64,000 nt of DNA, taken from the IMG/VR virus record IMGVR_UViG_3300035189_000005, positions 10,182 through 74,181 of that record, one strand, 5' to 3'. Positions 7,052 through 59,724 of this stretch are shown piece after piece (the first letter of the stretch is position 1; each line of letters begins with the position of its first letter). Source of the DNA: a virus. The position numbers and the translations under genes were made by a program. Under the pieces are notes generated by a model. That model was not told the DNA's origin, made no database searches, and saw only the letters and a program-made list of their open reading frames with translations.

Positions 7052-7229
7052 CTAGGGCCAAACGGATCAATTCCCTTGGCCGTTGAGAGTAACGGATCAT
7101 TTTCAGCCCCGGCTTACTTCCCTCGGGTGCGATCTTGATCAATCCCTTTACCACTTGGATCACGTCTTTGCTTCGCCGATGAACAGCGAGAGTCAATGCC
7201 AGACGAAGCATGATGTCATTGGGGGTCAT
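7020..7229 (-). CDS. hypothetical protein (MTPNDIMLRL...)
   Basis: SD GAGGG before ATG 7229. Confidence 0.6.
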   Translation of the reverse strand: MTPNDIMLRLALTLAVHRRSKDVIQVVKGLIKIAPEGSKPGLKMIRYSQRPRELIRLALGEYEVEDGNW

Positions 7230-7374
7230 TTGACAGCCCTCAGTTTGTTGCCCTTTTTGAGCCATACGGCAACAAGTTTGGCCTGTGTTTTGTGAACTAC
7301 ATACCATTCATTGCTGTATGTAGGTAGTTGGCTTAGTCGCATACGGCAATTATCAATTGCCTGTTCCAAGGTAA

Positions 7375-7680
7375 TCATTTGAGTTTCCCCCACTTACCCC
7401 GTGGACCTTTAGGGCCTTTGATCCTATCTGGCGATATTTCAGACTCAAACTGACTTACGCCCAAATGGTGCATAAGTACCCCCAATTGGCTCAGTGTTTT
7501 ACCACTACCTCGTTCGGACAACTTTTCCCACTCATCAAAGATGAGTGAGTCTACTTTATGGGCAGGAGGCAATTGCTCAGTATCTCCTGTGTAAAACAAC
7601 ACTTGTTCGTGGAGACTGATCTTGAGTCTCTCCAATATAGCCGGGCTCATTGACCCAGTTACTAATACGATTGTTCGCAT
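7375..7680 (-). CDS. hypothetical protein (MRTIVLVTG...)
   Basis: SD GGAG before ATG 7680. Confidence 0.65.
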   Translation of the reverse strand: MRTIVLVTGSMSPAILERLKISLHEQVLFYTGDTEQLPPAHKVDSLIFDEWEKLSERGSGKTLSQLGVLMHHLGVSQFESEISPDRIKGPKGPRGKWGKLK

Positions 7681-7693
7681 ACTGTTCTCCAAT

Positions 7694-7719
7694 AAAAAGA
7701 GGCCCACCGAAGTGGGCCT
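7694..7719 (-). terminator. intrinsic terminator closing the ncRNA array
   Basis: Minus strand AGGCCCAC-TTCG-GTGGGCCT-CTTTTT. Confidence 0.85.
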
Positions 7720-7736
7720 AAAGGTCGGGAAAAATT

Positions 7737-7908
7737 CGGTGTATTGGTTGGATAACTTCACATTACGGAATCGAACCGTAGTTTCCAGTGCTTCGCTCTC
7801 AGAGGCCCTAACCTTACTCGCCAATATCAGCTTTCCTGGTGAGAACATGTAACTACTGGCTGTCGTACTTGCCACTATACGAATGAAAAGTTACCCACCA
7901 ATACACCG
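7737..7908 (-). ncRNA. tRNA-like RNA A: 15-bp acceptor stem ending ACCA, D arm, T arm, ~65-nt insert in anticodon arm
   Basis: D arm CGUA-UAGUGGCAAG-UACG; T arm UACGG-UUCGAUU-CCGUA; closing helix with G:U pairs only on the minus strand. Confidence 0.75.
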
Positions 7909-7975
7909 TTGCTGCTAGTCCCCGGTGCACTGGGTACGTCAATTAAAGCCCGGACGCACACGGTCTATTCTTTTA

Positions 7976-8122
7976 ATGCATTGGTTGGATGTCCTAACGG
8001 GCAATCTTCGTGCGTTGACTGGTAGCTAAACACAAGTCTTCACCTGCGCCTATTGAACTATTCAATCCCCCAGAGAGCTTTCCCTATCCTTGGCCTTCGG
8101 ACCAGGACATCCACCAATGCAT
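7976..8122 (-). ncRNA. structured RNA B sharing the terminal stem/NCCA module, no T-loop
   Basis: AUGCAUUGG-UGGAUGUCCU ... AGGACAUCCA-A-CCAAUGCAU. Confidence 0.65.
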
Positions 8123-8254
8123 CCTCTTCAAAGGACACATTGGGTGAAACGTGAATGCTGAGCGGTTACATGTGGCAACGGCACAGCGCCTTGTCTAATA
8201 CATAGCGATTCTCCTTTGGTTCAACACTTGGAAGGAAGTGTCCACCTATTTGAT

Positions 8255-8340
8255 TGGGCGGGATCTGTCGCATTGGCACAAGGGCCCCACTGCGAAATGT
8301 TGCGGCAAGATTGCAGGTGATGCCTCATCAACCAGATCCC
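8255..8340 (-). ncRNA. tRNA-sized multi-hairpin RNA E
   Basis: GGGAUCUG/CAGAUCCC closing stem followed by GCCCA; internal hairpins UGAUG/CAUCA and UCGCA/UGCGA; AGUUUAU leader like RNA C. Confidence 0.45.
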
Positions 8341-8351
8341 ATAAACTAAGA

Positions 8352-8472
8352 GGGGGAGTAGGGAGTCGAACCCCACTTCCCTGGCCGCTAAGCCAGCTTA
8401 AATGCATAAGTCAACCAGACAGCTACTTCCAGACTATCCATGGTTCGTCTGGACCTCGCTTGCATTCCCCCC
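8352..8472 (-). ncRNA. tRNA-like RNA C with enlarged D-arm region
   Basis: 5' GGGGGGA and 3' GUGGGG-UUCGACU-CCCUAC-UCCCCC; AAUGCA/UGCAUU stem enclosing ~60 nt; CUGGC/GCCAG hairpin. Confidence 0.65.
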
Positions 8473-8478
8473 ATAAAA

Positions 8479-8677
8479 CTGGCATTGGATGGATGCCCTC
8501 TGTTGCTGGTATCGAACCAGCGTCTCATATGCTCACGACAGTTCTTCCAGAGCCTGTGCGATCTCTTACCTCAACGGAACCCGTCTTCAAGTACCTACCA
8601 CAAGTTGCAACTGCCTAGTGTGAGCGTGAATCAGCGTCCTACCTTTGGACGATACAGAAGACATCCACCAATGCCAG
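8479..8677 (-). ncRNA. tRNA-like RNA D: 15-bp acceptor stem ending UCCA, D arm, T arm, ~83-nt insert in anticodon arm
   Basis: D arm GUCC-AAAGGUA-GGAC; T arm GCUGG-UUCGAUA-CCAGC; GCUCAC/GUGAGC stem around the insert. Confidence 0.75.
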
Positions 8678-8734
8678 CTTGCTGCATTGTAGCTGCCGCT
8701 GGCATTGGGATTTACTGTTTACTCAGGGCGATGA

Positions 8735-8929
8735 TTACTCGCCGGACGCTTCGGAATCGGCCTTGTCGGCACGGTTCGAAACGGTCTGGAAGCTTTCCTC
8801 GACTTCGATGGCGGAACCATCGTTGAAGTTGATTTCGGTGCCGTTCGGCAGTTCCGCGAAGTGGCTGACCTTGGACAGATCGACACGAACACGGAAGCCG
8901 GAACGCAGTTTCAGTTTGGTGAAAGCCAT
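8735..8929 (-). CDS. small FlbD-like-fold protein, paralog 1
   Basis: Pattern VRVDLSKVSHF...GTEINFNDGSAIEVEESFQTV; SD GGAG. Confidence 0.7.
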   Translation of the reverse strand: MAFTKLKLRSGFRVRVDLSKVSHFAELPNGTEINFNDGSAIEVEESFQTVSNRADKADSEASGE

Positions 8930-8987
8930 TTTTGTTTCTCCAGAGATTTGAGGGGTCCATCCCCCCAAGAAAGGGTTGTTGTTGAAC

Positions 8988-9221
8988 TCAGGCTTCTTTA
9001 GCAGAGGCAGAATTGCCCCGGCCAGTAGCCTTGTTGATGAAACCACGCACCGAACGCGGCGTGTCACTTACGTGATACACGCCGCCATTCGATAGACTGA
9101 TGTGAGTACCCGAGGTCACTGCACCATCACTGTCGGTTGCCGGAGCAAAACCAACGATGTGAGCAGTATTCAGGTCCACCTTCAGATTGGTGTCATTATC
9201 GACCACACGGATGTAGGTCAT
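8988..9221 (-). CDS. small FlbD-like-fold protein, paralog 2
   Basis: Pattern VDLNTAHIVGF...GTHISLSNGGVYHVSDTPRSV; SD GGAG. Confidence 0.7.
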   Translation of the reverse strand: MTYIRVVDNDTNLKVDLNTAHIVGFAPATDSDGAVTSGTHISLSNGGVYHVSDTPRSVRGFINKATGRGNSASAKEA

Positions 9222-9257
9222 TGTTTTACTCCACGGGCTATCGCCCCAAGAAAGGAA

Positions 9258-9755
9258 TCAGATGGACTCACGAGCAGGGACAGGTTCGTCCTCTTGGTTC
9301 TGGTACTTGCCCGAATAGACAGCAGCCTCGACCACCTCGTGGAAAATCACTTGAGCAATGCCCGAACCAGCAGGGATGAGCAGTTCCTCTTCCCCGTGGT
9401 AGACAAGCTCCAGGGTCAAGAAACCGTTCCATCCCGGCTCGATTACGGTGTTGAATACGGACAGACCACGACGTGCCCAGGTGGACTTGTCGTGGACAAT
9501 GCCGGTCAGGTTGGGTGGCATCTGGAATTCTTCCATGGCCGAGGCCAAGCAGAACCGCCCGTCTTTCACGTATTCATCCGCAACATGGATGGTACGGATG
9601 TTGAAGGCATCACCTTTGAAGTGGATGTCCTGCTTAACCCGGATGTCATACCCGGCTTCACCCAAGCCATAGCTGGTGCCTTCGAACGATTTCTTCACTG
9701 CAACCATATCCTTGATAGGTGCAGCAGCCAGCAGTTGTAAGCCGTTGATGATCAT
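9258..9755 (-). CDS. dcd: dCTP deaminase / dUTPase family
   Basis: GYDIR, VHDKSTWARRGL, IEPGWNGFLTLEL, GIAQVIF motifs. Confidence 0.92.
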   Translation of the reverse strand: MIINGLQLLAAAPIKDMVAVKKSFEGTSYGLGEAGYDIRVKQDIHFKGDAFNIRTIHVADEYVKDGRFCLASAMEEFQMPPNLTGIVHDKSTWARRGLSVFNTVIEPGWNGFLTLELVYHGEEELLIPAGSGIAQVIFHEVVEAAVYSGKYQNQEDEPVPARESI

Positions 9756-9757
9756 GA

Positions 9758-10903
9758 TCAGTTCCTGATGTAGATGACTTCGCCATATGTAGGCACATGC
9801 CCACCACCACGGCCAATCCTGATCCAAATGATGGGTACGTGCACTGTAGGTCGCACCATTGGTGTGACTTCCAGATCCGAGAAGATGATAGCAGCCGTTG
9901 GCTGGTGTTTTTCTATATGCTCACGCACACACACCAGCGATGTACCGCTGCCATGAGCATCAGTCACCACATCAAAGGAATCACTTTCCTCGAAGGTCTT
10001 CTCATCCATGATCCGGGTATCGAACTGAACGAGGGTCAACTTCCGTGGATTGAATGTCTCCTTGATGTACTTCACCTCCGAGTTAAAGCGTAAACGCTCC
10101 TGGGCGGTGATGGATGCAGACACATCAAGGTAGTAGATCAGGTGATCCAATCGGCCCTCTTCCTCGTAGGTCGATGGCAGATACATATTCGTGTAGCGGC
10201 GATTTGGACGAGCCCAAGTGTAGGCAATCTCGGCCAGATCACTGAAGAACTTGTACAGCAGGCCTTCCCACGGAACCACGGGAGTCAGGAACTTCTTGAT
10301 GATCCCTTTGGTTCCACCAGGGACGGTGCCAGCTTGCCCACTGGCCTCGGCTGCTTGCACAGCTTTGACCACGTTGGCTATGCCCTTCAGAATGGTTTCT
10401 TCCGTTGGGTCACGCATATCACCTTTACCCGCACCGGGTACACCCCAGGTAGGCTTGGGCTTGGCACCGCTATTGATGAGCAGGTCGTAGATGTCCTCTT
10501 CGACCATCCTCCCGCCTTTGTCCAGATCTGGATTAAGGCAGCACCACTCGATACCTTCGAAGGTATAGCCTTCCTTCTTCAGATCGTTGTTGATGCGATA
10601 GTCCGCTGCTTGGTTCCAGATCTCTGGATCACGATTGCCACGACGGATCATATGCAACAGGCCTGGATGCCACAGCTCATGGGCCAGCACTGTTTTACGA
10701 GTGGCCGGCTTGAGTGACAGGAACCAATGGGGATTCCACCAGAGACTGACCCCATCGGTTTCAGCGGTTTGCACCGTCTCATCCCAGATGAATTCCAGGC
10801 TGCACATCAATGATCCAAGGAAAGCACCAGTGCCTCCGATGAACATCTGAGCCTTGGTCTTGTTGAGTTCCTCATTGAGAAACTGTTCGTCAATCTCTTG
10901 CAT
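9758..10903 (-). CDS. metallopeptidase (HExxH) plus vWA domain protein (N4 gp25-like)
   Basis: VLAHELWH, WNQAADYRIN, DVSAS MIDAS-like motif, IIFSD. Confidence 0.88.
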   Translation of the reverse strand: MQEIDEQFLNEELNKTKAQMFIGGTGAFLGSLMCSLEFIWDETVQTAETDGVSLWWNPHWFLSLKPATRKTVLAHELWHPGLLHMIRRGNRDPEIWNQAADYRINNDLKKEGYTFEGIEWCCLNPDLDKGGRMVEEDIYDLLINSGAKPKPTWGVPGAGKGDMRDPTEETILKGIANVVKAVQAAEASGQAGTVPGGTKGIIKKFLTPVVPWEGLLYKFFSDLAEIAYTWARPNRRYTNMYLPSTYEEEGRLDHLIYYLDVSASITAQERLRFNSEVKYIKETFNPRKLTLVQFDTRIMDEKTFEESDSFDVVTDAHGSGTSLVCVREHIEKHQPTAAIIFSDLEVTPMVRPTVHVPIIWIRIGRGGGHVPTYGEVIYIRN

Positions 10904-59646: not shown

Positions 59647-59724
59647 AGAGGGTTCGCCAAGTCTGGTTAAGGCACCGGGTTTTGATCCCGACACTCCTAG
59701 GTTCGAATCCTAGCCCCTCTTCCA
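59647..59724 (+). tRNA. tRNA-Gln (UUG)
   Basis: Cloverleaf: GCC-AAGTCTGGTTAA-GGC, CGGG-TTTTGAT-CCCG, CTAGG-TTCGAAT-CCTAG, encoded CCA. Confidence 0.9.

Follow-up and report, generated by a model that had tools for sequence, protein, structure and literature searches.

A putative array of tRNA-mimicking and other structured RNAs in an N4-like phage and its relatives

A gene-free stretch with five folded RNAs

In a 64,000-nt stretch of viral DNA (positions 10,182 to 74,181 of IMG/VR record IMGVR_UViG_3300035189_000005; this whole stretch is referred to as the window and its numbering is used below) we found an array of five folded RNAs, D, C, E, B and A in 5' to 3' order, on the minus strand of a gene-free stretch (7690-8734). 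Because such structures recur at the same locus of other phages with compensatory base changes, the array appears to consist of selected structured non-coding RNA genes and not of decayed transfer RNA (tRNA) genes. The 74,181-bp virus record, of which the window represents 64 kb, has direct terminal repeats at its ends. The phage has a G+C content of 52% and is N4-like (Schitoviridae-type), since it encodes a virion RNA polymerase of 3,473 amino acids (aa). Its nearest cultured relatives according to the gp25-like protein are the Pseudomonas putida phages Ebordelon, Holyagarpour and Zuri, with about 54% aa identity.

The array follows a row of minus-strand genes encoding the gp25-like protein (9758-10903), a dCTP deaminase (9258-9755), a 77-aa protein of an FlbD-related family (P77, 8988-9221, an open reading frame (ORF) call directly after the dCTP deaminase gene) and its 64-aa paralogue P64 (8735-8929), which is the last coding sequence before the RNAs. 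It is closed on the same strand by an intrinsic terminator (7690-7719, with stem and U tract at 7719-7700) that consists of an 8-bp stem with six GC pairs, a UUCG loop and a U tract, and the next minus-strand gene is separately started at 7680. Terminators are likewise present at the array ends of relatives. In the interval 7300-9900 this terminator was the only strong one, and no sigma-70-like promoter was detected there. The initial annotation of this DNA, made from the sequence alone, had described a gap without credible coding sequence next to a strong terminator, and we came to the same view. The longest minus-strand ORFs in 7694-8734 encode at most 53 aa, and neither these small ORFs nor the two plus-strand ORFs of 126 and 128 aa matched a PHROG family.

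Five separately closed minus-strand folds had been proposed, and all of them were reproduced in place, both in a fold of the whole 1046 nt and in separate folds of D (8479-8682), C (8352-8472), E (8255-8340), B (7976-8122) and A (7737-7908). Compared with dinucleotide shuffles, minus-strand energies were low for D (-86.4 kcal/mol, z -6.8), B (-60.4 kcal/mol, z -5.8) and A (-67.2 kcal/mol, z -5.8), and modestly so for C (-50.1 kcal/mol, z -2.5) and E (-33.1 kcal/mol, z -1.6). All five elements folded better on the minus than on the plus strand, by 5-17 kcal/mol. A proposed excess of G:U pairs on the minus strand was found for D, B and A (7-9 pairs versus 2-3 on the plus strand) and was absent from C (3 versus 3) and E (1 versus 2).

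The elements differ in how much of a tRNA they contain. The window contains five copies of the T-loop word GGTTCGANNCC (0.53 expected), three of them within the array kilobase on the minus strand; the predicted T loops UUCGAUU in A, UUCGACU in C and UUCGAUA in D are all present. Every invariant position of the tRNA elbow (U8, A14, R15, G18G19, A21, G53, U54 U55 C56, A58 and C61) is found in A and D, C has those of the T arm only, and B and E have none. tRNA mimicry is seen in A, C and D, three of the five elements, and not in B and E. A 5-bp anticodon stem with a 7-nt loop occurs in none of A, C and D; instead, A and D carry inserts at the anticodon position (about 65 nt in A and a rod of 88-110 nt in D). 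The acceptor end consists of 7 bp without CCA in C, and of 13-16 bp followed by one unpaired base and a leader-paired CCA in A, B and D. With default settings ARAGORN called no tRNA in 7690-8734; its sole call in the window was a tRNA-Gln(UUG) at 59647-59724 (plus strand), the only canonical tRNA of the phage, which immediately follows the virion RNA polymerase gene and is distant from the array. Rfam gave no row at gathering score in the array region and only chance-level rows at expect values (E) up to 10. Both outcomes had been anticipated in the initial annotation, according to which no element would be a normal tRNA or a member of a known family.

Recurrence of the RNAs in related phages

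Searches with blastn against 50,697 phage records using the whole region, B alone or C alone gave nothing usable, and homologues were found only by reading the syntenic gaps of relatives. They occupy the same slot, after the gp25-like and dCTP deaminase genes, in nine other phage genomes or contigs. B, C and E are distributed there over N4-like phages of Pseudomonas and Erwinia (Zuri, Holyagarpour, Meara, Arace01, CL and UCB24) and uncultured relatives. In Zuri, Holyagarpour, Ebordelon, Arace01, Meara and CL the slot after the dCTP deaminase gene is a gap that has been left without annotation over 0.46-1.6 kb; there is no single gap in UCB24, where RNA elements lie between small genes, and in N4 and Erwinia phage Frozen the slot is filled by ordinary small genes. 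If processed and stable, RNAs of the array type could explain gaps of 0.5-1.6 kb that lack annotation in several deposited Schitoviridae genomes.

RNA B consists of a closing helix, termed wrapper below (outer 10 bp, a bulged A, inner 13 bp), one side hairpin and a rod. The core of the rod, UAGGGAAAGCUCUCUGGGG...GCACGAAGAUUGCCCGU (19 + 17-18 nt), is identical in the window phage, Zuri, Holyagarpour and Meara, although the neighbouring gp25-like protein shows only 54% identity to that of Zuri and 51% to that of Meara. Homologues of B were found in Zuri, Holyagarpour, Meara and the metagenome contig L126. The B copy of Meara follows another gene and is enclosed by another closing helix, and the variant encoded by UCB24 combines outer helices of the Meara type with a core of its own. 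An alignment of five B sequences contained 14 pairs changed on both sides versus 6.7 +/- 1.7 in shuffles, with 88% of cells paired versus about 40% with slid partners. A covariance model of B (R1) scored Zuri, Holyagarpour and Meara at 129-143 bits, matches by construction as all three are in its training alignment, and UCB24 as the sole independent match at 39.8 bits. In IMG/VR the B core was found only in Zuri's own record, and among metagenome contigs in a single relative, L126. It had no match in 185,579 bacterial and archaeal species genomes, and B as a mimic of a host RNA was rejected on this ground.

RNA E forms a three-way junction with the blocks UGAUGAGG and CCGCARCRUUUC and a 3' tail GCCC. 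Its homologues in Meara and CL have the same relative position and are the last element before the next gene; among the three phages 12 of 30 pairs are changed on both sides. We also considered E as a hammerhead ribozyme, whose core has CUGAUGA and GAAA around three stems, and rejected this, as there is neither a GAAA element nor an Rfam match. The window phage has UUGAUGAGG where Meara and CL have CUGAUGAGG, and the C/U before UGAUGAGG covaries as a base pair (column 14 with column 63). Together, B and E represent at least two, and probably with a further one three, uncatalogued structured RNA families, in addition to a conserved three-strand closing device described below.

Between E and B lies another conserved element (8195-8250, minus strand), composed of AAUAGGUGG, a 7-bp hairpin with a CCUUCC loop and a Shine-Dalgarno site, followed by the 2-codon remnant AUG UAU UAG. 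The same element precedes real genes in Zuri (gp46), Ebordelon, Holyagarpour and Meara and FlbD-like genes in L126, UCB24, CL and a further relative, G004. Its hairpin stems covary between phages, and L126 holds a similar 2-codon remnant, AUG UUG UGA. As it is present in single copy in the window genome, a role as a general middle promoter was ruled out for this genome.

True tRNA genes and near-tRNAs are found in the same slot of other relatives. Phage CL (L121), whose record is unannotated here, encodes in C's slot two RNAs (7058-7130 and 7212-7284) above the Rfam tRNA gathering score (48.8 and 35 bits) with 6-nt anticodon loops, for the first of which ARAGORN gives an 'anticodon' of two bases. 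The IMG/VR contig L004 carries a tRNA-Arg and a tRNA-Leu. These tRNAs, the singletons A and D, and the 2-codon remnant, which indicates that the locus was rearranged, would fit a presently functionless array made up of tRNA genes in decay and debris of spacers. We consider such decay very improbable, given compensatory changes across phages whose gp25-like proteins are just 51-54% identical to that of the window phage, invariant blocks of 17-19 nt, fold z-scores of down to -6.8 on one strand only, and two alternative leader pairings that are both kept in most of 12 elements. The initial annotation had proposed covariation in homologous loci as a check, and this was positive for B, C, E and the common closing helix.

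RNA C as a possible descendant of a class II tRNA

RNA C combines a 7-bp acceptor stem (GGGGGGA/UCCCCCU) and a T arm (GGGG-UUCGACU-CCCU) with a hairpin, CUGGC-UUAGCG-GCCAG, whose 6-nt UUAGCG loop and stem lie at the position of a Ser-type variable arm. About 60 nt of other structure replace the D and anticodon arms. The 3' half of C is kept with compensatory changes in Zuri and Arace01, both of which encode a CCA. As noted initially, C and E have the leader AGUUU(U)AU before GGG in common (AGUUUUAU before GGG in C, AGUUUAU before GGG in E). In Meara the spacer before the +1 G reads CCA-UUUAU-GGG.

The C hairpin and T arm match the variable arm and T arm of a class II tRNA-like gene of Ser type from the tRNA array of a jumbo phage (IMG/VR contig L135, 183,666 bp), which suggests an origin of C from a class II tRNA. 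The gene in L135 (7678-7767) is an uncalled member of a 19-tRNA array and scores 36 bits to tRNA-Sec, below threshold; it is its variable arm that matches the C hairpin. Adjoining this gene, at 7808-7872, we observed a sub-threshold element resembling the RNA YrlA (31 bits, E 6.7e-5).

The hairpin of C might also be read as part of a miniature transfer-messenger RNA (tmRNA), with the acceptor stem and T arm as its head and a short tag frame ending at a conserved UAG in the hairpin GCUUAGCGG. The frames end in KLA (window phage), TAA (Zuri) and KTA (Arace01) before the stop, and the stop codon in the hairpin loop resembles that of tmRNA helix 5. In contrast, no tmRNA model (RF00023 and its clan) matched C, the sole tmRNA-clan row being an 8-bit chance match on the T arm of D, and ARAGORN in tmRNA mode at a 70% threshold made only implausible calls. 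The alanine identity pair G3:U70 is missing from the acceptor stems of the window phage, Zuri and Arace01, the Zuri frame has only four codons, and the three tags show no conservation. A Ser-type variable arm accounts better for the hairpin, and a tmRNA-like role for C seems to us far-fetched.

RNAs A and D carry a tRNA elbow around a large insert

RNA D consists of a wrapper (outer 11 bp, a bulged U, inner 14 bp) around a tRNA body in the order helix, U8 C9, D arm (GUCC-AAAGGUA-GGAC), rod of about 110 nt, T arm (GCUGG-UUCGAUA-CCAGC) and helix. When introns were allowed and the threshold was set to 80%, ARAGORN read D as a tRNA-Val(CAC) (8660-8495) with an 88-nt insert at 37/38. A group I intron would be longer than this insert, and there is no sign of splicing. 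RNA A is similarly built from a wrapper (outer 11 bp, a bulged A, inner 16 bp with one U:U) and a tRNA body in the order helix, U8 C9, D arm (GUAU-AGUGGCAA-GUAC), insert, AAAC, T arm (UACGG-UUCGAUU-CCGUA) and helix. The insert of about 65 nt is branched and closed by CCAGU/ACUGG at the anticodon position, and a G15:C48 pair is possible. The two D arms announced as canonical are indeed those of A and D, each with U8, a 4-bp stem, A14, R15, G18 G19 and A21.

In five relatives the slot of D is occupied by another wrapped element with its own T arm (F-type). An alignment of these five contained 21 pairs changed on both sides, with 96% of cells paired; G004 also carries an F-type element, which was left out of the alignment. 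Between the F-type and E-type RNAs of Meara (L124, 6195-6400) we observed two further tRNA-like elements with good T arms, one of them with an encoded ACCA; neither is called by ARAGORN or annotated in the record.

Compared with canonical and phage tRNAs (RF00005), A and D share an acceptor-like helix, U8, D arm, T arm, the Levitt-pair position and the T-loop invariants, and C shares the acceptor stem, T arm and class II variable arm. They differ from them by the absence of a 7-nt anticodon loop and, in A and D, by a terminal helix of 15-16 bp in place of the 7-bp acceptor stem. A tRNA-mimicking domain on a long helix of 5' and 3' ends is also found in YrlA, in which this domain is circularly permuted (stem-V-T-AS-D-stem) and which is encoded beside a Ro60/TROVE gene; YrlA-type RNAs also occur in phages (PMC4201824, Chen et al. 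2014). The array RNAs might accordingly be Y-RNA-type partners of a Ro60/Rsr protein, as they combine a long terminal helix with a tRNA-like domain, and GGUCCGAAGG in the side hairpin of B resembles the Ro60-contact motif GGUCCGA (PMC4201824). This possibility is largely refuted and we regard it as remote in the extreme. The YrlA model (RF02553) gave no row at E up to 10 in 7600-8800, though it registers at L135, and no TROVE gene (PF05731) was found in the 74-kb genome, with positive controls. The module order is that of a normal tRNA (stem-D-insert-V-T-stem) and not the permuted one, and the GGUCCGAAGG hairpin is not conserved in Zuri, Meara and UCB24.

A common closing helix with an upstream competitor strand

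The wrapper of A, B and D follows one plan. An outer helix of 10-11 bp, in which ..CAUUGG pairs with CCAAUG.., is followed by a single unpaired 3'-strand base, which is U in D and A in both other elements, and by an inner helix (13-16 bp) starting with UGGRU/AYCCA. At several columns, differences among the three copies are compensated, and the register of bulge and CCA is fixed. Read 5' to 3', the 3' strand has the order helix-N-CCA-AUG, so that the bulged base resembles a discriminator and the three bases after it a CCA, both of which would be held in duplex by the 5' leader.

Upstream of each wrapped element we found a third strand (s1, consensus CCCAAUGnnnn) that repeats the trailer (s3) and can pair with the leader (s2) in its place. 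For D, s1 is CCAAUGCCAGC (8698-8708, minus strand), which forms a contiguous 11 bp with an s1:s2 duplex of -21.4 kcal/mol versus -9.4 +/- 2.3 for the shuffled leader. The s1 of B, CCAAUGUGUCCUU (8131-8143, minus strand), forms 13 bp with the leader (-16.7 versus -9.0 +/- 2.3 kcal/mol), and that of A, CCCAGUGCACCG (7923-7934, minus strand), reaches -18.7 versus -9.0 +/- 2.1 kcal/mol. A trailer copy of this kind was present in all 12 wrapped elements checked, from nine phages or contigs, whose leader duplexes were likewise compared with shuffled leaders. The leader:s1 duplex was better by 2.1-5.2 shuffle standard deviations in 11 of the 12 and by 1.4 in the F-type element of L126. For leader:s3 the margin was smaller (1.3-4.1 standard deviations, below 2 in four of 12), with two of the 12 s3 tests invalid, as a spacer segment instead of the true trailer was picked for B of the window phage and B of L126 is cut at the contig end. 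In CL the strands s1, s2 and s3 change jointly (CCCAACGCAGU, ACUGUGUUGG and CCAACACAGU). On the basis of these duplex margins and of the joint change in CL, both leader pairings appear to be under selection.

Within the spacer between B and A (7949-7961, minus strand) the segment ACCGUGUGCGUCC is also complementary to the B leader, with G:U pairs, and looks like a degenerate extra copy of s1 or s3. More than 114 matches to a wrapper 14-mer were found in IMG/VR, all of them single chance matches and none with a partner strand. We also considered CCCAAUG as a promoter motif and rejected it, as its 19 genome copies lie mostly within genes.

Leader:trailer helices around a structured RNA are known from the processing stems of rRNA operons, where they serve excision. 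To our knowledge, no natural example of the rRNA type has a caged N-CCA and a competing upstream strand in addition to such a helix. The caged CCA and the three-strand wrapper are unusual features for tRNA-like stable RNAs of a phage.

Since s1:s2 and s2:s3 are mutually exclusive and both conserved, and since the array also contains a conserved operator-like hairpin with a Shine-Dalgarno site, the helices might instead be cis-acting switches, i.e. attenuators or processing timers for neighbouring genes, and not parts of trans-acting RNA genes. We judge this very unlikely: the terminator ends the array and is followed by a separately started gene, B lies behind different genes in different phages, and no U tract follows the alternative hairpins.

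Possible processing and function

We hold it to be about an even chance that the array is an operon of stable tRNA-mimic and scaffolded RNAs which are excised by host tRNA-processing enzymes and which bind or titrate a factor that recognizes the shape of tRNA. Transcription would read through from the dCTP deaminase and small-protein genes on the minus strand and stop at 7719-7700. A, C and D would derive from tRNA genes and would have kept the parts that are recognized by host enzymes (the T loop in all three and additionally the complete D/T elbow in A and D), while having lost a usable anticodon loop; the unrelated structured RNAs B and E would travel along.

From the sequence features we infer a processing route in which host tRNA-processing enzymes cut the RNAs out. 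The A/U-rich spacers AGUUU(U)AU before the +1 G resemble tRNA-operon spacers that are cut by RNase E and RNase P. In the closing helix of A, B and D the bulged base would act as discriminator, with the CCA caged by pairing with the 5' leader. If s1 takes the leader, the N-CCA end would be freed for RNase P and 3' trimming; if leader and trailer are fully closed, a substrate of RNase III type with 24-27 bp would result. The former corresponds to the kind of substrate that RNase P accepts in hairpin RNAs such as 4.5S RNA. The mature products might then act as tRNA look-alikes or tRNA-scaffolded cargo RNAs that titrate a host or phage factor recognizing tRNA shape. A role as decoys against tRNA-targeting defences, which the initial annotation had suggested, is conjecture, if a reasonable one for a phage.

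Several observations weigh against this interpretation. The only public run containing the array region is a peat DNA metagenome, possibly the source sample itself, and array sequence was found in no RNA run. No homologues of A and D were found in reachable sequences, including an IMG/VR pattern scan for the A/D-type wrapper plus T loop with 0 matches, and their inner structures have no covariation support; the case for the two elements is consequently made by their fold statistics, their canonical tRNA elbows and a wrapper in common with B. Of the 'at least five' RNAs counted initially it is B, C and E that have homologues. Furthermore, C encodes no CCA in the window phage, and no sequence feature in the array points to a particular tRNA-targeting nuclease or tRNA-binding protein. 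Finally, the distance from elbow to CCA in A and D is 15-16 bp and not 7. RNase P, the CCA-adding enzyme and EF-Tu measure an acceptor-plus-T length of 12 bp, into which a 15-16 bp helix does not fit. The canonical enzymes could therefore not read both elbow and CCA at once, which argues against aminoacylation and ribosome entry and for the binding or titration of some factor.

Alternatively, the tRNA body and the wrapper could be a scaffold for folding, processing and stability, with the inserts (the A and D rods and the B core) active as protein sponges or aptamers and not as tRNA mimics. An engineered, non-natural counterpart is the 'tRNA scaffold' for recombinant RNA, in which a tRNA body protects and processes an inserted cargo as A and D might do. 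Different cargos do occur in the same wrapper (D in the window phage and F-type in five relatives), and the same B core occurs in two wrappers, that of the window phage and Zuri and that of Meara, with UCB24 combining Meara outer helices and another core. As expected of a binding site, there is no variation in the B core itself, in contrast to the covarying helices that surround it, and B and E have no tRNA features at all. On the other hand, all tertiary-pair positions are retained in the A and D elbows, more than a folding scaffold would require. Apart from a common ribosome-binding-site motif there was no antisense match of at least 12 nt to the phage genome, and the absence of the B core from the 185,579 species genomes shows that it is not the copy of a host RNA. 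This scaffold explanation would account for the cassette-like exchange of cargo as well as tRNA mimicry does; we regard it as possible, although rather unlikely.

A broader proposal is that the wrapper might be a general phage device for RNA cassettes. The competition of s1:s2 with s2:s3 would cage the N-CCA until a processing step, cargos (D, F-type, B) would be swapped by recombination at the repeated CCAAUG sites, and the released CCA-ended RNAs would act on tRNA-handling or anti-phage machinery of the host. We put this forward as speculation that is more probably wrong than right by a wide margin.

Phage tRNA clusters are usually interpreted as aids to codon usage, and in recent studies phage tRNAs have been connected with the evasion of defences that cleave tRNA. 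The array described here indicates that a lytic N4-like lineage keeps tRNA-shaped RNAs without the decoding part. If its RNAs are processed and stable, they would provide a tractable system for tRNA mimicry during infection, as cultured Pseudomonas phages are available among the relatives (Zuri and Meara on P. putida, CL on P. alcaligenes); they would also reveal how unrelated RNAs are packaged for excision by a phage, and would add several families to RNA catalogues. Literature searches found no published description of the array, in agreement with the initial statement that none was known from N4-like phages. The closest published parallel are RNAC and RNAD (species 1 and 2) of T4, small stable RNAs of unknown role from the tRNA region of this phage that were confirmed by northern blots (PMC3014915, PMC9697503). 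By their published description, they are similar in that the array RNAs also sit where relatives carry tRNA genes and have no assigned function. The array RNAs differ from them by the leader:trailer wrapper with its upstream competitor strand, by two members with a full elbow around a large insert, and by belonging to another phage family. Putative small, partly processed non-coding RNAs were also described from an intergenic gap of the N4-like Pseudomonas phage LUZ7, between orf69 and orf70 in the late region (PMC9163698); their locus is a different one and they were not described as tRNA-like.

Small proteins upstream of the array and a recurrent motif

The paralogy of P64 and P77 is seen in their alignment. 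P77 matches phrog_7594 (E 2.5e-5) and has homologues with 62-69% identity, and a profile search with the small-protein family yielded 132 representative relatives; the same profile found no relative in IMG/VR. Both genes had been called FlbD-like. This holds for the family, in which 15 of 60 sampled relatives from the profile search match Pfam FlbD (PF06289; best E-value 1e-6), and not for P64 and P77 themselves, which have no match to it. A relative in L126 also matches Pfam FlbD (E 0.002). One or both small proteins precede the RNA elements in L126, CL, UCB24 and G004. In Zuri (L119, 7669-7897) we observed an unannotated Cys-rich ORF of about 76 aa after the dCTP deaminase gene, and likewise in Holyagarpour and Ebordelon; in these three phages it stands in for the FlbD-like genes ahead of the RNA elements.

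An AlphaFold2 model of P64 (pLDDT 87.7) consists of five strands and a C-terminal helix. Foldseek against the PDB returned weak rows for Sac7d/Sso7d and FERM-F3 (E 0.04-0.1, TM about 0.5), too little to call P64 nucleic-acid-binding, and we make no claim that P64 or P77 binds RNA.

A word that recurs in the genome is GAACCAAAGGAG (TTGGTTC/GAACCAA beside a Shine-Dalgarno site). It occurs at 8211-8222 and also, for example, at 2907, 4756, 23930, 59096 and 63032, and is the source of most repeats of at least 12 nt that the RNA region shares with other parts of the phage genome.

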